From positions 12,278-22,639 of the forward strand of contig CAZSKP010000035.1 in the NCBI GenBank assembly GCA_964607485.1: DNA of 10,362 nt. Direction: 5' to 3'. Made by a program: the position numbers and the translations under genes. The first letter of the stretch is position 1; each line of letters opens with the position of its first letter. Shown here one piece after another: positions 154 through 10,362 of this stretch. Below the pieces are notes generated by a model. It did no database searches, was not told the origin of the DNA, and saw only the letters and a program-made list of their open reading frames with translations. This DNA comes from an uncultured bacterium (GTDB lineage: Bacteria; Abyssobacteria; SURF-5).

Positions 154-894
154 TCATTTGTGGTTCGGCGGATTATACTCCAGCAAGTTGTCGGCGATCT
201 CGCCGTCAACTACTGGCTCATAGGTCGTTGTGTCCACTGTTTGGAAATCCTCGAACTTCGTTTCCTCGTCGATCCTGCGTACCAAATACGTCTCCTTCTC
301 AATCCAGAGCGTCACGGGGCTGTCGTCGAAATTACCATGGACGCGGAAACACTCGGTCTCGTCAAGTTTGGCGTCTTCGATCCTGCTTGCCTCGGTAATA
401 TCCGTCAATGGCCGCCCGGAAATCTCGTTGGGGAGGAGCAGCGCGGGGATTGTGTGCGCGGAACCTCCGGACACTCCTGTCGCGCCGGCCACCGCCAGCT
501 CAAGTGACGGCGGATTCTCGGTTCCGGGCTTGATGTCCCACCAGGTCCGGACTTCATTTTCTTTGCGCCAAACGATGAATAGGCTTTTCTCCTCGCGCTC
601 GTTGACGCAGACCCTTTCATAGTACTCAAAGCGGAACCGATCCGGACGGATGAAGGCTGTGTTAAAAACCAGTTCCTTGGTCCAATTGCGACCATCATGC
701 TCGATGAAGACGATCTTGACGATGCCAGAGTCACGGTAAGATTTGCATTCGGCATACGTTTTCGCCATGCGCTCGAGAATCTGCTTGGGGGCGAGAGTTT
801 CGGAGTGCGGCTCCTCCGCATTACTTATTGAAGCGGAGGAGAGCACAAAGGCACAGGAGAGGATCACTATGATAACCGCATCCACAAGGTGCAT
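154..894 (-). CDS. Secreted/periplasmic protein, probable LolA-like (DUF2092 / lipoprotein-sorting) fold
   Basis: 246-aa ORF with ATG at 894..892 preceded by GAGAGAG. Hydrophobic N-terminal signal with a probable SNA|EE cleavage site. Motifs 'ILERMAKTYAECKSY', 'RPDRFRFE' and 'VTLWIEKETYLVRRI' are typical of LolA-superfamily proteins. Confidence 0.7.
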   Translation of the reverse strand: MHLVDAVIIVILSCAFVLSSASISNAEEPHSETLAPKQILERMAKTYAECKSYRDSGIVKIVFIEHDGRNWTKELVFNTAFIRPDRFRFEYYERVCVNEREEKSLFIVWRKENEVRTWWDIKPGTENPPSLELAVAGATGVSGGSAHTIPALLLPNEISGRPLTDITEASRIEDAKLDETECFRVHGNFDDSPVTLWIEKETYLVRRIDEETKFEDFQTVDTTTYEPVVDGEIADNLLEYNPPNHK

Positions 895-1357: not shown

Positions 1358-4300
1358 TCAGGCGTTGATTTCGAGGAGCACCGGCTCGGCGAAGTCCTCG
1401 ACCGACGGGTCGTAGTATTCATACACCCGCGAGGTCGGCGTCTTGGCCTTGATGGGGAACTTTGCCTTGAGCTGATACGAGAAGCTCAGCTCGGCGTTCG
1501 CGTCTATCTTACGCAGGTAGATGATTATCTGGCGGCCCGTGACGGTGTACTTCTCGATGGTCTTGTTCTCGACGAGCGCCTGCAGGCCCTCGGGCTGAAC
1601 CGCAAAGCCGGGCGGCACGCCGAGGTCCACCATGACCATGTTGGCGGTCGCGGGCCTGTTGTTGAGCACGCGCACGCTGCACGTGACGAGGTCGTCCTTC
1701 TCCAACCGCGTCTTGTCGTACTGAACGTGTATCGACATCGGCTCCTGCCGCCCGGGCCTGTCCGCGCCCCACGGCAGATAGTAGCGGCCGACGATCTGAT
1801 ACAGCATGCTCCCCTCACCCTCGAACCGGAGCTTCACGGTGTTGCTTCCCTTGCGCACGTATTTCTTCAGGTCAACCAACCGCATCACGTCGCTGTCGGC
1901 TGGCGTGATCTTCAGCGTCGTGGCCGTCTCGCCGTCGATGCTGATGGTGATGACGCCGTCCACTTCCTCGGTGGAGCTGCCCAGCGCGACGACCATCGCC
2001 TTCATCGCGAGCACGGTCGCCTGCGTCGAGTGCCACGTGCCGGAGGCGTCCTTCGAGCGGATGAGGTAGGTCATCACCTTATTGGCCGTGTCGGTGTAGC
2101 GTCCGGACCTGAGGAACGCGATGGCGGCCAGCGCGGTCGTCTCAATGTCGGCGCTGTTGCCGTGCGAGTAGGTCATCGTGTTGAGCTTCGATTCCCAATG
2201 GACCGCGTCGTTTTCCTCTATCTTCATTCCGTCCAGTTTGCGCAGGGCCGCGTCGTCCTGCCGGTCGGCGAGCACGAGTGCGTTTGCGCACAGCGCGAGC
2301 ACATATGGGTCGTCGGCGTCGTTCATGTGCGCCTTGATGTAGCTCACGGCCTTCTTGACCTCGGGACCGTCGTAGCCCGACTCGAGCAGCGACCACGCGA
2401 CGTACGCGGTCACGGGCAGGTTGCTGTTCTGTATGCGGCTCCAGCTTTCCTGATGCAGGAACGATTGGTCGGGCGCCCAGCTTCCGTCGTCCTTCTGTTT
2501 CGAGAGCAGCCATTTCTGCGTCCGCGAGATGACGGAGGGGTCCACCTCGTGCACCTTCGCCATGTCCTTGAACTCCATCAGGCCATAGGCGGTCAGAATC
2601 TGGTTGGCGGGCGGATTGCCGAACCACTCGAAGCCGCCGCCGTTGACCTCGAAGCTCAGCAGCCGCTGGTAGCCGGTGTTGATGAATCCCTCGGCCTTCA
2701 TCTGTATCTCGGGCGAAAGCTGCTTCGTCGTCTTCAGGTAGTCGAGCACGAGGATGTTCGGATACGTCGTTGACGATGTCTGCTCGAAGCAGCCGAACGG
2801 CATCCGCAAAATATTGTCGAGCCCTTCGACGATTTGGCTGAACACGCCGGGATAGATTTTCACCAGGATGGTGCTGCCGTCGTCTGTGGCGTTGGGCGGA
2901 ATCGTGATGGTCTTCTCGACGACGCCTTCGAGCCGGTCGTTGAAGTTGACGAGAAATTCCTTGCCGTCGGGTGCGACGAGAATCTGTCTCTTGATTGCGT
3001 CGCTCATCTTGCTCCCGAGGCCGTGCACGGTCAGACTGTGCCAGCCGACCTTCTTCGCGACGATGGTGAAATAAACGACTGAGACCTCGTCCTTCTCGAG
3101 CCATATTTCCTTCACCGGTTCGTCCACGAGCTCGAACCACTCCTCCTTCGTTATCTCCAACTTGATCCGCTGGGAGCCCGGAAGGTAGTTGTACACCGCC
3201 ACCGGGATCGAGATTCGGTCGTTCTGCGTGAGCGCGACCGGCAGGTCGATGTCGATGAAGAAATCCTGAAACACACGGATGGGCGTCGAAGCGCTTCCGA
3301 GCGCGCCGCCGAGCGAAGAGGCCATGCTCGCCATCCGCCACGTCGTGATCGAATCGGCCATCTTGAGGGCGATGCTCGCGTTTCCATACGCATCCGTTAT
3401 GATAGCCGGGTTGAAGAACAACGTTTCGGGAAAATACTCACGTATGCGCACCTGCTTCTTGTCTCCGTGCGCTTCGCCGCCGACAACGCTTGAATCGGGT
3501 CTCATCTCATTGTCGGCCAGCATGCCGGCCGCCTTCTGCATCATCGGCGCCACCATACCTTCCTCGACTACATCAAACGCGCGGCGGAACCAGCCTCTCT
3601 CTTTTATTTCCGGTTGGCGGGTGATTGTCACGTCGTCCTTTGTGCCGACTTTCTCGTCGGGTCCGGCGCTGAGCAGTTGAAACGTCAGGTAGTCCTTCCA
3701 CGTGAAATATGCGTTCTCCGCGCGATACAGGTTTCCCCACGGGTCGGTCGCGTCTTCCGAATTCAGCAGACGCTCACCGACGAGGGCCGCGAGGGTTTCC
3801 GTGTCGTTCGGAAATCTGTCGTGACGCTTGTGGAACCGTTTCAGCGCCTTCTCTATTTCTTCGGCGTCCTTCTGCATGATTTTCTGAAGCTCGGCCACGA
3901 AGGCGGTCTCCTTGTCGTCGTAAGTGTTGACATTCAGCGAAGGCGTCCAGAGTGTCTCGACGGAGGCCAACAGCACGCGCGCGGCTTCGCGTCGCCTGGC
4001 GATTTCCTCGATGACGGCCGCATCCGGTTTGTGGAGGACGATGTCATCCATCGAGTAGCCGTGGATTTCGTAGCGCGGCTTCATCAGCTCCTTCTCGAGC
4101 GTAAAGTAAATCTTCTCGAGGCCGGGCTGCATCTCCTGTAGAAAGAACACGCTCTCGTCCACGATGCTCACACCGAGCGCAGCCAGGACGGGATGTCCCT
4201 TCTTGTCGCGCACGGTGAAATTGATCGTGGCGTCCTCGCCCGGACGATACACGTCCTTATCAAGCGCCACGTCGATTGTGAGGTCGTTGGCCGGATTCAC

Positions 4301-6214
4301 ATAGAGGAGTCGCGAGTCGCGGATGATGTCCGACGTTGGCGTTATCTGATAGGCGTTCATCTGAAGGCTTCCGGACAGGTCGGCCGAAAGCGCCACGTCC
4401 AGCTCGCCGCGTCCGTCGCGAAGCTCGACCGACTGCGTCAAAACCGTCTGCCCCTCCTTGATGAGGTCAACGTACACGGTCCCCCTCTTGCGCGTCGCCA
4501 GAACCGTCGCGTGAACGGTGTCGCCGACCTTGTACAGCGACTGGTCGGTGCGAAGCAGCACGTGGTGCTCGCCCGGCTGGGCTGCGAGCGTCAGCTTCTT
4601 GCTCGTCCGATTTCCCTCGGCGTCGCGCGCGTGAACGGTCATGTCGAGCTGTGCGCTTTGCGGGAGTACCCTGAGGGTGGCGATGCCCAGCGCATCGGTT
4701 CGCAGGCCAGTGATTCTCGTCGCGGTCGCGCTGACATCCACGTCTATCCTTGCGGCCGCGGGTCTGCCGTCGGGATACGTGGCCATGACGTAAATGATAT
4801 TCTCGATCCCGGGCACAATCGTCCCGCTCTCGGGAACCGCCACCACTATCAGCGGGTCGGCGGCGATGCTCACGTTGCGCGTGATTTCCTCCTTGTGGTC
4901 GGCGCCGTCAACGACCCGCACGTCCACCTTCACGAACGCCTTCCCCTGCTGGAGCGGCTGACCGACGAAGTGCGACGGCAGCCTCGTCTCGAATGAATAG
5001 TGCCCCGACGCATCTGTCCGGCCCTCGATGCGGGCGAACTCGGCGAACTCGACGTCGAATTTGGAAAACTTTATGACGACGACTCCGTTCGCGACCGGCT
5101 TCCCGAAAAAGTAGTCGGCCTGCACCTCGCCCCGCACCGTCTCGCCGGGCAGGTAGTAATCTTTGTCGGGCTTCAGGCTGATCTTGAACTTCGGGAGCAC
5201 GTAGCGTTTCACCGTGACATCCTTCTCGACCGTTGTCTCGCCGAGGATGACGCGAATTTTATACGTCCCCATATTGACCTCATCGGCCAGAACGAAATCG
5301 GCTGCGGCTATGCCGAACCTGTCGGTCTTCGTCGCGTGCTTGAACACCTTGTTGCCCTTTGCATCCTGCACCTCGATTATTACGTCATCCTCCCCCGCCG
5401 GCTGCAGCGTGGCGCGGGAAAGAGAAAGGCTGCGGATGTGGATGGTCTGCTCCGGCTGATAGAGCGGCTTGTCGGTCGTGAGCAGTATCTTGTGGGCTTT
5501 CCTTATTGTTATGGGATTCTCGATCACGTCTTCGCCCAAAGGCGAGCTGACCTGAACGACGAGCGTATGTTGACCCGCCAGGTCTTCCGGAATGCGAAAC
5601 GCGGCGTCCACCGTGCCTCGTTCGTCCGTCCTGCCCCGGAACAGAATGCTCTTGCTCGCATCGCTCTTTATGGCGAACGAAACTCCGGCGTTGGCGACGG
5701 GCTCACCCGTGGCATGGTTGAGCGCCACGAGGCGCAGCGTGGGCATGCTGCCCGCCAGGAATTCGGTCGAGCCGATGAGATGCGTCTCGATGGTTCCCAC
5801 GCATTCCGCCAGGCTTCGCCTCCCCTCCAGTCTGCTCCCGTCGCGGAGCTCGACCCGGTATTCGACGGAGTACAGCGACAGGTTCTTAAGCTCGGGCACG
5901 TGGGCTATCGATGCCCTGAAGGTCTGGCTCCTGCGAAAGGCAAACACGCTGTCCGACGTTTCGGCAAGGCGATTGCCCTTAAGGTCAACGATGGCTGCCT
6001 CAACCTGCGCCCATTCAAACAGCCGCGCCTTCCACTCGATGGGAATCGCGACCTTGACGCTCCGGCCGTCGAGCCAGGCCTGGATATGCGTCTTGTCCAC
6101 ATGCGCAGTGTCCGCCGGCACGGCCTGTTCCGCAACGGCAAACAACTGGCAAACGGCCAAAAGACTGATGGCCACAACCACCAGCGCCAATGAAATGTCG
6201 AAATGTTTTCTCAT
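1358..6214 (-). CDS. Alpha-2-macroglobulin/complement-family thioester-containing protein, with a GspG/T2SSG-like insert
   Basis: 1618 aa with an N-terminal signal peptide. MG-domain motifs TDKPLYQP, YVLPKF, YFFGKPV, TDQSLYKVGD and LDKDVYRPG. Post-bait motifs REYFPET and DSITTW. Thioester GCFEQ at 2794..2780, TED motif STQAT, and receptor-domain motifs NMVMVD and VYEYY. GGAG RBS just upstream of the ATG. Confidence 0.95.
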   Translation of the reverse strand: MRKHFDISLALVVVAISLLAVCQLFAVAEQAVPADTAHVDKTHIQAWLDGRSVKVAIPIEWKARLFEWAQVEAAIVDLKGNRLAETSDSVFAFRRSQTFRASIAHVPELKNLSLYSVEYRVELRDGSRLEGRRSLAECVGTIETHLIGSTEFLAGSMPTLRLVALNHATGEPVANAGVSFAIKSDASKSILFRGRTDERGTVDAAFRIPEDLAGQHTLVVQVSSPLGEDVIENPITIRKAHKILLTTDKPLYQPEQTIHIRSLSLSRATLQPAGEDDVIIEVQDAKGNKVFKHATKTDRFGIAAADFVLADEVNMGTYKIRVILGETTVEKDVTVKRYVLPKFKISLKPDKDYYLPGETVRGEVQADYFFGKPVANGVVVIKFSKFDVEFAEFARIEGRTDASGHYSFETRLPSHFVGQPLQQGKAFVKVDVRVVDGADHKEEITRNVSIAADPLIVVAVPESGTIVPGIENIIYVMATYPDGRPAAARIDVDVSATATRITGLRTDALGIATLRVLPQSAQLDMTVHARDAEGNRTSKKLTLAAQPGEHHVLLRTDQSLYKVGDTVHATVLATRKRGTVYVDLIKEGQTVLTQSVELRDGRGELDVALSADLSGSLQMNAYQITPTSDIIRDSRLLYVNPANDLTIDVALDKDVYRPGEDATINFTVRDKKGHPVLAALGVSIVDESVFFLQEMQPGLEKIYFTLEKELMKPRYEIHGYSMDDIVLHKPDAAVIEEIARRREAARVLLASVETLWTPSLNVNTYDDKETAFVAELQKIMQKDAEEIEKALKRFHKRHDRFPNDTETLAALVGERLLNSEDATDPWGNLYRAENAYFTWKDYLTFQLLSAGPDEKVGTKDDVTITRQPEIKERGWFRRAFDVVEEGMVAPMMQKAAGMLADNEMRPDSSVVGGEAHGDKKQVRIREYFPETLFFNPAIITDAYGNASIALKMADSITTWRMASMASSLGGALGSASTPIRVFQDFFIDIDLPVALTQNDRISIPVAVYNYLPGSQRIKLEITKEEWFELVDEPVKEIWLEKDEVSVVYFTIVAKKVGWHSLTVHGLGSKMSDAIKRQILVAPDGKEFLVNFNDRLEGVVEKTITIPPNATDDGSTILVKIYPGVFSQIVEGLDNILRMPFGCFEQTSSTTYPNILVLDYLKTTKQLSPEIQMKAEGFINTGYQRLLSFEVNGGGFEWFGNPPANQILTAYGLMEFKDMAKVHEVDPSVISRTQKWLLSKQKDDGSWAPDQSFLHQESWSRIQNSNLPVTAYVAWSLLESGYDGPEVKKAVSYIKAHMNDADDPYVLALCANALVLADRQDDAALRKLDGMKIEENDAVHWESKLNTMTYSHGNSADIETTALAAIAFLRSGRYTDTANKVMTYLIRSKDASGTWHSTQATVLAMKAMVVALGSSTEEVDGVITISIDGETATTLKITPADSDVMRLVDLKKYVRKGSNTVKLRFEGEGSMLYQIVGRYYLPWGADRPGRQEPMSIHVQYDKTRLEKDDLVTCSVRVLNNRPATANMVMVDLGVPPGFAVQPEGLQALVENKTIEKYTVTGRQIIIYLRKIDANAELSFSYQLKAKFPIKAKTPTSRVYEYYDPSVEDFAEPVLLEINA

Positions 6215-6389: not shown

Positions 6390-7064
6390 TCACGTCGGGC
6401 GGATGTTGAGAATGGTGGGGATTTTCAGGCCTTCGGTGCAGGGCGAGTTTTTGTAGCCCATATCGACGGCGATTCCGCCATCTATCGTCATTGAGACCAG
6501 CGTAAAATCAAAATCCTTGTCGAGACACGAGAGTTTCTTCCCCGACTCGAAAAACGACTCGAACCCTCTCTTGAAACTGCCCTCGCCGCGTGTCCACAGG
6601 GCGTCGGCAATCGTTTCATAGACCAGCGCGCTCTCCCCCAGCCCACGATGGTCGTGCACGAAGACGATACTCAGGTCGATAGGCTCGTCGGAAGCCATGT
6701 TGGCGATGACGAGCATCTGGGAATAGGCCTCCGATTCGTCCAGCTCGTAAAAGTCGGCCGCGGGTACATATTTCTTGCCCCAAATGCCGTCAGTCACCTT
6801 ATCTCTGCCGAATACGTGGTCGAAATACGCATCGAGACACACCACCTGCAGCACTTTCTGGGAATATTCGAGCTTTGCCGAACTTGTGACCACGTGCTGG
6901 TACTTTTTCCTCAGCATTCGGTTAAGCGTCTTGATGATGTCGGTTCTCAGAGTGTAAGAATCCTCAGTACTGAGGGACTTGCCCTTGTTTCTCGCTGAGA
7001 CGATGTTCCGAAAATCCCCGAGCGTGTCATCGAGGTCCCAGCAGATAATCTTCGGTTTTGTCAT
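6390..7064 (-). CDS. HAD-superfamily hydrolase-like protein (224 aa)
   Basis: Starts MTKPKIICWDLDDT, with motif I DxDxT at the usual N-terminal position. Motif II VVTSS, a candidate motif III Lys in GKKY, and a degenerate motif IV ANMASD. The start was shortened from 7364 because a promoter lies at 7124..7151. Confidence 0.8.
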   Translation of the reverse strand: MTKPKIICWDLDDTLGDFRNIVSARNKGKSLSTEDSYTLRTDIIKTLNRMLRKKYQHVVTSSAKLEYSQKVLQVVCLDAYFDHVFGRDKVTDGIWGKKYVPAADFYELDESEAYSQMLVIANMASDEPIDLSIVFVHDHRGLGESALVYETIADALWTRGEGSFKRGFESFFESGKKLSCLDKDFDFTLVSMTIDGGIAVDMGYKNSPCTEGLKIPTILNIRPT

Positions 7065-7123
7065 AGTGCGGTTAATCGATGGTTGAACAATGAGCTCTCG
7101 GCTATTTTTTTGGGATTCATAAT

Positions 7124-7151
7124 AGTATACCATATTTCCCATCCTTGACAA
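7124..7151 (-). promoter_or_regulatory. sigma70-type promoter with extended -10 for the HAD gene
   Basis: On the minus strand, TTGTCA (7151..7146), 16 bp spacer, TATACT (7129..7124), with a TG-n extension (TGGTATACT). Confidence 0.65.
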
Positions 7152-7174
7152 ATTCCTCCGGAGCTCTCTATAAT
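7145..7174 (+). promoter_or_regulatory. Consensus sigma70 promoter for the ETF-QO transcript
   Basis: TTGACA (7145..7150), 18 bp spacer, TATAAT (7169..7174). Both hexamers are perfect consensus. Confidence 0.85.
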
Positions 7175-7180
7175 AAAAGG

Positions 7181-7454
7181 GGTTTACCGGGTGGCGCTCC
7201 ACGCTGTTCCATTCACCCCTGTCGTCGCTTTCGGAATGGCGGGCGTCGCCAGCGTGAAACTCCGTCTGGTCAATAGGTTGGGAGTTTCCGTCGCTAGAGG
7301 CTTTTCGGTATGAACGTATCGCCCGAGGGGTGAAATTACTGTCAGATGTCCGCAGGAGCATCACCCCGACAGTCCGCCGTTCTGTTCAGCGGACTATCAG
7401 CAACGGGCGGTATACGGTCGTTCCACAATGAAGGCAGCTTACAGGAGATAAGCT
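7181..7454 (+). promoter_or_regulatory. Long structured 5' leader (candidate cis-regulatory RNA or sRNA)
   Basis: About 275 nt lie between the predicted start of transcription and the ATG. Helices: 7212..7220/7326..7334, 7256..7263/7281..7288, 7338..7343/7368..7373 and 7371..7377/7389..7395. The SD sequence AGGAG sits in the loop of an AGCTTA/TAAGCT hairpin. Confidence 0.4.
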
Positions 7455-9164
7455 ATGGATGTCGAACGCGAAACCATGGAAGTTGATGTGTTATTCGTCG
7501 GTGGAGGCCCGGCAAACCTCGCCGCCGCGCTTCACCTTAAGCGACTCATCGACAAGCATAACGAGGAAGTGGAGAGCGGGAAAAAGCAGGGCGAGAAATT
7601 CAGCGACGAGCTGATGATCGCGCTCATCGAGAAGGCGCAGGAGGTTGGACTCCACGGGCTCTCCGGGGCGGTCGTCGACAAGAAGACCATATTCGAGCTG
7701 TTCCCCGATTTCGACGACAGCTGCGGCGCCGTCGAGTGCAAGGTCGAATCCGAAGACGTGGTCATGCTCACCAAGACCGGAAAGATAAAGGCCCCCATCA
7801 CTCCTCCCCCACTGAACAATCATGGTTTTTACACCGTCTCCCTGGCCAAATTCACCAAGTGGATGGGAGAACAGGTCGAGGCGGCAGGCGTGGACATGTT
7901 CGCCGGGTTTCCGGGCGTGGAGCTCCTGTACGAGGACAACAAGGTCGTCGGAGTCAGGACCGGCGACAAGGGCCTGGACCAGCAGGGCAACCCGAAATCG
8001 AACTTCGAGCCCGGCTACGACCTCCTCGCGAAAGTGGTCGTGCTCGGCGAAGGGCCTCGCGGGTTCCTGGCAAAACAGTTGATTGAAAAATTCGGCCTCG
8101 CGAAGGGACGCAGCCCGCAGACGTACGTGACGGGAGTGAAGGAAGTGTGGCAACTGGCCGAGGGCAAGCTCAAGCCCGGCCACGTCATACACTCGCTCGG
8201 TTATCCCCACGACACCAAGACATACGGCGGCGGATTCATCTACAGCATGAAGGACAACATGGCCTCTATCGGGTTGCTGACCGGCCTCGACGCGCGCGAC
8301 CCGCAGGTGGACCCGCACAGATATTTCCAAATGTTCAAGATGCACCCGATGGTAAAAGACCTTCTCCAAGGCGCCAAGATAATGCAGTACGGAGCCAAGA
8401 CGGTTCCCGTCGGCGGCTGGTACTCGGTGCCGAAGCTGGCCGTGAATGGATGCGTGCTCGTCGGCGACTCGGCCGCCCTTTTCAACCCGATGAAGATCAA
8501 GGGCGTTCACCTGGCCATGAAGTCGGGCATGCTCGCGGCGGAGACGATCTTCGAGGCGCTTCAGAAGAACGACTTCTCCGAAGCGCAGCTCGCGAAATAC
8601 GAAACGGCCGTCAAGAACAGCTACATCAAGCAGGACATGTGGAAAGCCCGCAATTTCCATCAGGGATTCCACAACGGGCGCTACGCCGGCCTGTTCAACG
8701 CGGCCATCCAGTACCTGACGAACGGACGCGGGCTGAAAGACCCGATGCCGACGGAGGAAGACCACAAGGCAACGGTCTCCGTCGTGGACTACTACAAGGG
8801 TCAGAACCCCGAAGAAGTGAACAAGGTGACCTTCGACGGCGAGCTCACGTTCGACAAACTGACCGACGTGTACCACTCGGGCACCGTCCACGAAGAGCAG
8901 CAGCCGTGCCACTGCCAGCTCGTCAACCCCGACTACTGCAACAACGAGGAAAGCTGCAAGAAGAAATACAACCGCTCTTGCGTGAAATTCTGCCCCGCGT
9001 TCGTCTATGAAGAGGAAGAGGACGAGGCGACCGGAAAGACCCGCCTGAAGCTCAACCCCTCGAACTGCCTGCACTGCAAGACGTGCGACATCAAGTGCCC
9101 GTACAATAACATCAGGTGGACACCACCCGAGGGCGGCGGCGGTCCGAAGTATTCGCTCGTGTGA
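7455..9164 (+). CDS. Electron transfer flavoprotein:quinone oxidoreductase (FixC-FixX-like, FAD + Fe-S)
   Basis: 569 aa. N-terminal 'ERETMEVDVLFVGGGPA' Rossmann motif, plus LSGAV, GVKEVW, GGGFIY and KIKGVHLAMKSG. C-terminal CPA...CLHCKTC and the WTPPEGGGGPKY tail. AGGAG RBS. Confidence 0.95.
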   Translation: MDVERETMEVDVLFVGGGPANLAAALHLKRLIDKHNEEVESGKKQGEKFSDELMIALIEKAQEVGLHGLSGAVVDKKTIFELFPDFDDSCGAVECKVESEDVVMLTKTGKIKAPITPPPLNNHGFYTVSLAKFTKWMGEQVEAAGVDMFAGFPGVELLYEDNKVVGVRTGDKGLDQQGNPKSNFEPGYDLLAKVVVLGEGPRGFLAKQLIEKFGLAKGRSPQTYVTGVKEVWQLAEGKLKPGHVIHSLGYPHDTKTYGGGFIYSMKDNMASIGLLTGLDARDPQVDPHRYFQMFKMHPMVKDLLQGAKIMQYGAKTVPVGGWYSVPKLAVNGCVLVGDSAALFNPMKIKGVHLAMKSGMLAAETIFEALQKNDFSEAQLAKYETAVKNSYIKQDMWKARNFHQGFHNGRYAGLFNAAIQYLTNGRGLKDPMPTEEDHKATVSVVDYYKGQNPEEVNKVTFDGELTFDKLTDVYHSGTVHEEQQPCHCQLVNPDYCNNEESCKKKYNRSCVKFCPAFVYEEEEDEATGKTRLKLNPSNCLHCKTCDIKCPYNNIRWTPPEGGGGPKYSLV

Positions 9165-9237: not shown

Positions 9238-10362
9238 TCAAGCTTCGCGTCTTTGCGGGCGTATGGCAGGCTGCTTGAAGTCTTCTTTTCGAAGGTTGTA
9301 CCTTTTCATTAGCTTGTGCAGTTGGCGGGAGCTGATGCCGGCGGCCCTGGCGGTGGCGTCGATTCGGCCCTTGTTCGCTTTGAGCAGTTCACTCAAGTAG
9401 GAGAGCTCCAGCCCCCTGACGGCGTTCTCTCTCATCTGGGCCAGCGTAAGCGAGGTGTCCACGCTCATCGCGGGCACGCCCGTCTCCCCGGAGAAGAGCT
9501 CGCTCGGGAATCCCTCCGGCGTGAGAATCGAGGACGTTTCCAGTATGTAGGCGCGCTCCATGAGATTTTCCATCTCGCGGATGTTGCCCGGCCACGAATA
9601 GCTCTCAAAAGCTTTCATCACGTCCGGATGCACGTCCTCAATTTCCTTCGAATGAAACCTGTTGAGATTCTTGAGGAGAGTCTCGGCGAGAATCGGGATG
9701 TCCTCTTTCCGCTCCCGCAGCGGCGGAATCTCGATGGGAAACACGTTCAGGCGATAGAACAGGTCCTTCCTGAACTGGCCTTCATCGGACATCTGCTTCA
9801 GTTCCATGTTGGTCGCCGCGATGATTCTCACGTCGGCATGGATGTCTTCCTCGCCGCCTACGTGTTGGAATATCCCGTCCTGAACTATCTGGAGAAGTTT
9901 TATCTGTGCGGAAGGCGTAATCGTCGCGACCTCGTCCAGAAAGATGGTCCCTCCTTTCGCGATCTCGAACTTGCCCAGCTTGCGCCGCACAGCCCCCGTG
10001 AACGCGCCCTTCTCGTGTCCGAACAGTTCGCTTTCCAAAAGCGTGTCGGGAATCGCCCCGCAATGAACGCTGATGAAACTCGCGTCCTTGCGGCTGCTGT
10101 GCCTGTGAATCAGTTTCGCCAACACACCCTTGCCCGTGCCCGTCTCGCCTATCAGCAGAACGGTGCTCTTCGTCGGCGCCACCGATTGTATCTTGTCGAA
10201 GACCTCCCTCATCAAGGGACTTTTTGTGTGGACGATTTCAAGCGAGTCGGCCTGCCAGAAACTGCTGCGGAGATACTCGAGTTCAGATTGTATGAGCGTC
10301 AATTCATGAATGCTGTCGACCACATATTTCGCCTCATCCGGGTTGATGGGATAGGTGAGATA
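9238..10362 (-). CDS. sigma54-dependent Fis/NtrC-family transcriptional regulator (5' end outside the window)
   Basis: Walker [23 protein letters not shown], Walker [24 protein letters not shown] and a C-terminal Fis-type HTH. The frame stays open to the window edge ([14 protein letters not shown], the end of a receiver domain), so the GTG at 10323 is not the true start. Confidence 0.95.

Follow-up and report, generated by a model that had tools for sequence, protein, structure and literature searches.

A GspG/PulG-like pseudopilin head at the bait-region site of a bacterial alpha-2-macroglobulin-type protein from Abyssobacteria

We analysed a stretch of 10,362 nucleotides from an uncultured bacterium (GTDB lineage Bacteria; Abyssobacteria; SURF-5), which covers positions 12,278 to 22,639 of the forward strand of contig CAZSKP010000035.1 in assembly GCA_964607485.1 and is called the window below. 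Its minus strand carries a gene of the alpha-2-macroglobulin (A2M)/TEP family (1358..6214, stop codon included), for which the list of open reading frames (ORFs) and the translation give a product of 1618 amino acids (aa). Residues 768-866 of this product (3617..3913, minus strand) are a homologue of the head of GspG/PulG, the type II secretion (T2SS) major pseudopilin, as indicated by Pfam, profile search, AlphaFold 2 (AF2) modelling and structural searches. An earlier reading of the letters without database searches (the sequence-only reading) had flagged positions 3629..3877 as such a domain. On the minus strand these correspond to residues 780-862 of the 1618-aa ORF, where the peptide that it quoted is present, and they lie inside the domain, whose actual extent is larger.

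On the whole protein, the Pfam model T2SSG (PF08334) matched exactly residues 780-862 with 25.1 bits (E 1.9e-5, cut-off 21), and on a 123-aa piece the same model scored 32.2 bits (E 1.2e-7). The insert of the window protein was aligned with 28 inserts cut from homologues (alignment A1, 29 sequences). D824, W826, G851, D853, D860 and D861 are invariant in A1, and conservation is 90% or higher at A790, L811, L817, G827 and S849. Comparison of the A1 profile with 177,635 distinct PDB sequences put major pseudopilins in all of the first eight places (E 1.5e-10 to 3.1e-5), with the GspG of enterohaemorrhagic Escherichia coli (EHEC; 3g20, E 1.5e-10) at the top, followed by PulG, XcpT and EpsG; no chain of the A2M superfamily was matched in this set. 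A phmmer search of the PDB with the lone insert reached GspG only at E 0.029, below the noise of chemoreceptor coiled coils.

The AF2 model of residues 768-872 has a mean predicted local distance difference test (pLDDT) of 90.0 and a predicted template modelling score (pTM) of 0.81, and consists of a 30-residue helix followed by three strands. As modelled, the insert matches the pilin-head fold, in which a long helix lies on a beta-sheet. A structural search with VIA-align over 48,161 representative chains placed PulG (5wda_A) first (Z 8.1, root-mean-square deviation 3.8, 92 aligned residues) and EpsG second (Z 7.5), with type IV pilins next (Z 5-6). Foldseek placed EHEC GspG first (probability 0.99, TMq 0.55) and returned only pseudopilins and type IV pilins among its top ten, with E-values that are weak (best 0.064, none at or below 1e-3). 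A Z near 8 is middling when taken alone, and the case for the fold rests on the ranking together with the sequence profile. The GspG/T2SSG head proposed by the sequence-only reading, including its expected structural likeness to GspG, is borne out by these searches. The match to PulG spans residues 25-129 of the 5wda_A chain, and because it starts at pilin residue 25, the copy begins where the membrane-embedded pilin helix ends.

The insert shares with GspG, PulG and EpsG the alpha1C helix, the DPWG strand, the S.GPDG..T.DD calcium loop and the ligand spacing, but it is internal to a chain of 1618 aa and is without the prepilin leader, the N-methylation motif and the hydrophobic alpha1N. No hydrophobic helix was read ahead of the insert and Pfam gave no N_methyl match in the protein, in agreement with what had been noticed from the letters. 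The insert stays well short of the NCBIfam equivalog model for GspG (TIGR01710), which requires 88.85 bits and gave 15.6 and 23.2. Given the missing leader, motif and helix and the score below equivalog level, the insert is not itself a pseudopilin. The genome of the window does have a bona fide GspG, which matches N_methyl, scores 135.4 bits with T2SSG and retains the hydrophobic helix. Compared with this protein, the insert shows 28% identity and a gap of 14 residues ahead of DPWG. A loop is linked to secretion specificity in the part of a 2026 preprint used here (PMC13081927), and the gap would correspond to this loop by our own mapping, which was not made residue by residue. The bona fide GspG (153 aa) lies in a T2SS cluster on the own contig C6 (locus L001) together with a GspF-like gene (423 aa) and two prepilin-type genes (196 and 122 aa), the names of these three being taken from a reading of their translations.

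The calcium-site loop S849-A-G-P-D853-E-K-V-G-T858-K-D860-D861 (3632..3670, minus strand) was delimited by conservation, spacing and alignment to 3g20. In A1 and an alignment of 24 sequences of the family, no variation is seen at D853, D860 and D861 of this loop, and conservation at S849 and T858 is 90% or more; in the comparison of the A1 profile with the PDB the loop aligns to SPGPDG..T.DDI of 3g20. The calcium ligands of OutG/PulG, according to the same part of the preprint (PMC13081927), are D117, T/S122 and D125 (possibly D124) together with two backbone carbonyls, and D853, T858 and D860/D861 are spaced as D117, T/S122 and D124/D125 are. From the conserved and aligned ligands we infer that the loop of the insert binds calcium, and the Asp-rich Ca2+ loop that had been claimed at the domain's C terminus is supported by both ligand alignment and spacing.

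The remainder of the chain is that of an A2M/TEP superfamily member with a thioester motif. Pfam models above their cut-offs in the 1618-aa protein are MG2 (97.1 bits), MG3, A2M_BRD, A2M, TED_complement and A2M_recep. The A2M_BRD region covers residues 554-692 (4139..4555, minus strand, as are all features of this gene; 49.7 bits) and runs through the first half of the macroglobulin domain MG6 to the motif VDESVFFL, whereas the Pfam A2M domain covers residues 931-1020 (3155..3424; 65.8 bits) and represents the second half of MG6 together with MG7. The thioester domain (TED) spans residues 1125-1407 (1994..2842; TED_complement 189.8 bits) and includes the motif G1141-C-F-E-Q1145 (2780..2794), found by reading the sequence. 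GCFEQ is invariant in all 24 aligned family sequences, and thioester chemistry is predicted from this motif. A C-terminal domain of the receptor-binding type (A2M_recep) was detected at residues 1523-1605 (1400..1648; 54.9 bits). Among the best 60 of 77 PDB sequence matches of the full protein, which were those examined, the closest is human A2M (E 8e-79), with A2ML1 and CD109 down to 1.5e-66, and then insect TEP1 followed by C3, C4 and C5. No other solved structures are as near in sequence to the GCFEQ A2M family as those of metazoan A2M, A2ML1 and CD109. Residues 1 to about 28 (6131..6214) form a probable Sec signal peptide, with a basic start, a hydrophobic core and a putative cleavage site between AVA and EQ, and we infer from it that the protein is exported via Sec. 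The consensus of the family alignment has no conserved Cys in the signal region of the homologues, so a lipoprotein anchor is not a feature of the family. The gene is present in a single copy in the genome of the window.

The order of elements around the insert is VDESVFFL (685-692), a helical stretch resembling the linker (LNK) domain (693-767; 3914..4138), the pilin head (768-866), a variable segment (867-921) and VRIREYFPET (922-931; 3422..3451), which conservation and alignment to A2M and C3b identify as the equivalent of the alpha'NT 'plug'. The sequence-only reading had placed the module correctly, after the linker region marked by VDESVFFL and before the flexible bait and REYFPET (925-931). 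All 24 sequences agree at V685, D686, E687, V689, F690 and L692, and also at R923, R925, F928, P929 and E930 of the plug motif. An AF2 context model of residues 631-1030 (400 aa, built from a 48-row alignment) has strands at 646-686 (pLDDT 85-96) and helices of pLDDT 43-67 in the LNK-like stretch, into which the alignment of the cobra venom factor (CVF) alpha chain extends as far as query residue 708. The pilin head in this model has pLDDT 90-97 and the MG6/MG7 parts 76-96 (76-95 for the strands of the Pfam A2M domain). The gap between A2M_BRD and the Pfam A2M domain measures 239 aa, and within it the module is modelled confidently as a fold of its own. A Foldseek search with the context model returned only chains of the A2M superfamily, at a TM of about 0.25, and is uninformative on the packing of the module.

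The motif VRIREYFPET aligns to VRKYFPET of human A2M, and the counterparts of query residues 923-924 are residue 730 in human A2M (chain of 1474 residues) and residue 15 in the alpha' chain of C3b, a chain that starts at the C3a cleavage point. Since the alignments resume at 923-924, the module and the variable segment occupy the place of the anaphylatoxin (ANA) domain and the activation site, and the anaphylatoxin position that had been claimed from the letters agrees with this correspondence at query residue 924. Homology to the anaphylatoxin was considered and rejected, given that no ANATO match was found in the protein by Pfam up to E = 1, that residues 693-931 contain no cysteine and that the model has an alpha/beta fold. 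The ANA of C3, C4 and C5 is likewise a folded domain between LNK and the alpha'NT/second half of MG6, just upstream of the cleavage region, but it is a disulphide-rich four-helix bundle of unrelated origin, whereas the domain described here is a pilin alpha/beta head with a calcium site. Judged by these alignments, the pilin head between the MG6 halves is a positional analogue of the anaphylatoxin and not a homologue. In contrast to C3, C4 and C5, the A2M insert protein has no known upstream processing site, so that release of the module is not expected.

The segment that follows the head, residues 867-921 (3452..3616), is hypervariable, disordered and rich in Met, Ala, Gly and Pro. Regional conservation was expressed as the mean frequency of the commonest residue in the 24-sequence full-length alignment. 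This value is 0.30 for the variable segment (863-920; entropy 2.70 bits), the lowest internal value, compared with 0.44 for the pilin head, 0.61 for the LNK-like stretch and 0.72-0.73 for the second half of MG6 and MG7; the head is less conserved than the A2M body (0.53-0.73). The largest internal indels of the alignment also fall in the variable segment. Both anchors were found in 182 of 201 proteins, and there the distance from the DD motif to the R.REYFPE anchor ranges from 51 to 115 aa, with a median of 73, the other 19 being unmeasured. The context model has pLDDT below 50 at 883-930 and no secondary structure from residue 871 onwards. Methionine makes up 6.9% of the segment against 1.9% elsewhere in the 182 proteins, a 3.5-fold enrichment, and Ala, Gly and Pro are enriched as well. 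Because variable sequence and length, disorder and composition are the properties expected of a bait, residues 867-921 are probably the bait. The disordered segment and the conserved plug motif may be pointers to a protease-sensitive bait and a cleavage-triggered change. Sensitivity to oxidation, or a preference of proteases, could lie behind the enrichment of Met.

When residues 700-930 were used in a word-seeded search, 202 of 1360 candidate proteins had E at or below 1e-3, and the best 120, query included, were listed. All 120 are matched by phmmer with residues 770-870 (117 at E at or below 1e-3 and three at 0.0014-0.002), and 18 of them carry a precomputed PF08334 label; as this search was seeded inside the insert, it is unable to show members without the module. 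With peptide patterns from outside the insert, a collection holding one genome per species yielded at least 599 stretches; relatives are encoded in at least 559 of these, and the 80 best loci, which were retained, are biased to query-like proteins. Each of the 80 has a GCFEQ ORF with a whole-sequence match to the insert profile (E at or below 1e-3), although two (L011 and L016) show only a weak secondary domain row and in one (L075) the match is partial, at 31 bits. Among the kept loci are records labelled Poribacteria (70% identity), Hydrogenedentota, KSB3/Moduliflexus/Vecturithrix, Verrucomicrobiota, Armatimonadota, Cloacimonadota, Pirellulales, Planctomycetaceae, Phycisphaerae, TA06, Acidobacteriota and Vulcanimicrobiota, with a few metagenome-assembled genomes labelled Bacillota or Cyanobacteriota. 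Identity to the window protein is 42-78% over about 1600 aa in 23 alignment rows from many environmental phyla, and in the small phylum of the window the gene occurs in 6 of 11 genomes, the window's included. Within the best 120 homologues and the 80 loci, the single-copy pilin-head module is a constant feature of a large environmental family. The A2M and T2SSG layout is thus found across many environmental phyla, and its treatment as one insertion in one protein, as in the sequence-only reading, does not hold.

A similar search of 1.84 billion cluster representatives with the A1 profile revealed 8096 proteins at E at or below 1e-3, 577 at or below 1e-10 and 14 at or below 1e-30, and the best 150 were examined. 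Most of these are proteins of 1850-2140 aa with three to five matched stretches. Pfam was run on 11 of them, and seven are A2M-type proteins, whole or fragmentary (P0123, P0126, P0127, P0128, P0130, P0137 and P0167). In all seven, T2SSG lies ahead of the Pfam A2M domain and, where A2M_BRD is present, after it, and four of the seven have an added CarboxypepD_reg domain. The remaining four comprise three proteins with T2SSG only and one SdrD_B repeat protein without T2SSG. Of the 62 representatives with 1750 aa or more, four matched stretches were counted in 30, three in another 30 and two in the last two, and CxEQ is present in 59, mostly as GC[GA]EQ. The best-matching stretch is the first copy in many tandem proteins, which would fit the first copy being the counterpart of the single insert. 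This tandem class of about 1900-2100 aa (for example P0185 of Pyrinomonadaceae) has the same module at the same site and a thioester motif, as the family of the window does, but with 2-4 copies, CarboxypepD_reg in some members and GC[GA]EQ, whereas the window family has one copy and GCFEQ. Some very long top matches were set aside, since they cover only profile positions 74-100, the Asp-rich loop; an example is P0122 (4137 aa, 26 stretches), an SdrD_B/CarboxypepD_reg repeat protein with no T2SSG match.

Heads without the pilin helix were also detected in other proteins. Four representatives of 273-278 aa (P0143, P0145, P0163 and P0191) have a signal-peptide-like start and three tandem helix-less GspG heads, and since the contigs of two of them measure about 23 kb, these are whole genes rather than fragments. 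The genome of the window encodes a 420-aa protein (L002:105-1367, plus strand, own contig C59) that starts like a signal peptide and combines a FecR domain (53.4 bits) with a T2SSG head at the C-terminus (56.2 bits); no N_methyl motif was found in it. As judged from these proteins, the helix-less GspG head is a reused extracytoplasmic module. Two of the 62 long representatives contain an H-x3-C-x2-C motif, namely P0123 (1986 aa, A2M-type by Pfam), which starts with an N-terminal zinc finger of the anti-sigma type (zf-HC2, 45.8 bits), and P0240 (1768 aa), for which the motif was only read. These starts hint at a membrane-anchored trap that would signal to a sigma factor.

Compared with human A2M, A2ML1 and CD109 (6tav, 7q1y and 8s3o), the window protein has the same order of MG domains, MG6 split by a bait, MG7, TED with CxEQ and receptor-type domain, and the VR.YFPET plug is common to both. 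It differs in its bacterial host and in its bait loop, which is about 100 residues longer and holds a folded calcium-site domain. The E. coli protein ECAM/YfhM and Salmonella SaA2M are likewise bacterial thioester protease traps with a bait region. In the structural search with the 400-aa piece these two were weaker matches (ranks 27-46), and they are absent from the best 60 of the 77 PDB sequence matches. Bacterial A2Ms of type I are recognised by bacterial MG models, a lipoprotein anchor and a pbpC neighbour. Membership of the ECAM/YfhM type was rejected for the window protein: bMG5, with 14.3 bits, stays below its cut-off of 26.5 and is the one bMG model that Pfam lists, the signal region has no conserved Cys, and no pbpC-type gene was found among the neighbours in the window or as a conserved neighbour over 81 loci. 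The pseudopilin-head profile matched none of the solved metazoan A2M, ECAM and SaA2M chains in the PDB, which speaks against the segment being an ordinary part of MG6, a possibility that had been raised for typical bacterial A2Ms along with the original reading. A search of the paper literature for macroglobulin together with pseudopilin, T2SSG or GspG gave nothing relevant, with GspG matches judged by title and start of abstract and supplements not covered. The architecture is visible in automatic Pfam labels but seems never to have been studied; T2SSG and A2M are known families, and their combination, with the pilin head as an insert, is apparently undescribed.

In native proteins of the A2M family, as described in the part of PMC9352918 used here, the region after the bait threads a channel formed by MG2, MG3 and LNK, and a break in the bait leads to its retraction and to a conformational change. 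The reading we favour, with a probability of about 0.55, is that the bait-region domain has in this module a rigid scaffold, stabilised by calcium, or a bulky element, which stays on the N-terminal fragment after cleavage. The module is not part of a pilus and would have been captured from the head of the T2SS major pseudopilin. Its place would be across the MG2-MG3-LNK channel, opposite MG6/MG7, where it would offer the Met/Ala/Gly-rich bait to proteases. Once the bait is cut, the chain would be open between the module and VRIREYFPET, and this plug would then retract through the channel, close the trap and leave the thioester reactive, as in other A2M-family proteins. After a single cut the module would stay on the N-terminal fragment, and the remaining mechanism would be that of A2M. 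A scaffold is favoured because the conserved positions are the fold and calcium determinants that GspG needs. Several points weigh against this reading. That the module is kept throughout many phyla points to a more specific role than that of a spacer, and solved A2M-family proteins work without such a module, so that the need for a scaffold is not obvious. The context model, which included only MG6 and MG7 beside the module, has a pTM of 0.40, leaving the relative arrangement of the domains unpredicted and giving no confident packing of the module. Export, in turn, is a prediction made from the N-terminus.

Alternatively, and as the sequence-only reading had also suggested, the module could act in the manner of an anaphylatoxin, as a wedge that holds the native state with its thioester protected and is displaced or released on activation. 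It has the same topological position as ANA and is folded and family-wide, but it has no homology to ANA, with neither an ANATO match nor a cysteine in 693-931, and its release would need a second, upstream cut for which no processing site is known. Because a single bait cut leaves the module N-terminal, it would not be released as C3a is. The same context model, with its pTM of 0.40, gives no confident packing that a wedge would call for, and low surface conservation and 1-4 copies at the site fit a precise wedge poorly. We therefore regard such a role as unlikely. We are equally sceptical of a broader proposal built on it, in which the bait/ANA site would be a hot spot for independently installed folded gating domains and the pilin head a calcium-dependent gate, the counterpart of the anaphylatoxin, displaced after bait cleavage and setting the trigger threshold, and perhaps doubling as a handle for the T2SS pseudopilus or the cell surface. 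If the gate were real, free-living bacteria would have a complement-like gated thioester system, possibly tuned by copy number (1-4).

The head could also serve as a docking handle or decoy, another suggestion of the sequence-only reading, with the pseudopilus, T2SS parts, type IV pili or pilus-binding attackers as its partners, and so tie the trap to the secretion machinery or the cell surface. The T2SS cluster with its bona fide GspG, the secreted FecR and T2SSG protein without a pilin helix in the same genome and the stand-alone secreted proteins with three heads are consistent with this. However, polymerisation of type IV filaments is driven by the hydrophobic helix, which is absent here, and no conserved T2SS or pilus neighbour was found, the largest flank cluster reaching 7 of 81 loci. 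The 14-residue gap ahead of DPWG and the 28% identity to the own GspG argue against a handle specific for the T2SS, and a docking role appears rather improbable. The scaffold is preferred over both wedge and handle because the rest of the head is less conserved than the A2M body and because 1-4 copies are tolerated at the same site in relatives. Another explanation, to which we give no more credence than to docking, is a conditional bait, in which the calcium-dependent fold would be a sensor and low calcium or unfolding would expose a wider, protease-sensitive bait. The calcium ligands are strictly kept and calcium-free PulG is disordered and degraded in vivo, according to the part of the preprint used here (PMC13081927), but a long dedicated disordered bait already lies downstream. 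That the resemblance to a pilin head arose by chance or that the segment is an ordinary part of MG6 is very improbable. The scores obtained with single sequences are modest (Pfam 25.1 bits, phmmer E 0.029, Foldseek E 0.064). The profile E of 1.5e-10 with only pseudopilins on top, and the first ranks of PulG and EpsG in an independent structural search, exclude chance for practical purposes, whereas the absence of any solved A2M-family chain among the profile matches and the confident separate fold in the 239-aa gap speak against an ordinary part of MG6.

The A2M, C3, C4, C5 and TEP proteins share one spring-loaded mechanism whose trigger, with a plug in a channel, is still under study in the part of PMC9352918 used here. 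The family described here would be a natural experiment on the effect of a folded element beside the bait on triggering, and it is a case of a pseudopilin head reused as a soluble extracytoplasmic module. The consulted part of a 2026 review (PMC13069473) describes bacterial A2Ms as occurring mainly in host-associated Gram-negative bacteria and as being of metazoan origin, and the relatives detected here (at least 559), with kept loci from many environmental phyla, bear on this view. Relevant to the same debate on a metazoan origin are the strong conservation of the family and its closeness to metazoan A2M among solved chains.

An operon partner as a clue to function was considered and rejected, as no neighbour is conserved across the 81 loci and the largest flank cluster comprises 7 of them. 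The genome of the window additionally encodes a 436-aa prepilin-type protein (L005:733-2043, minus strand, own contig C23) with an N_methyl match and a split T2SSG match, whose head contains a long Asp/Gly-rich insertion. The other genes in the window are a weak DUF2092-like ORF (154-894, minus strand; 20.4 bits, below cut-off), a HAD/NIF-like phosphatase (6390-7364, minus strand; below cut-off) and, by neighbour annotation, an ETF-ubiquinone oxidoreductase (7455-9164, plus strand) and a sigma-54 activator gene that runs off the end of the window (9238-10362, minus strand). The genes upstream of the A2M gene (HAD-like and ETF-ubiquinone oxidoreductase) recur in 5 of the 81 loci, the window included.

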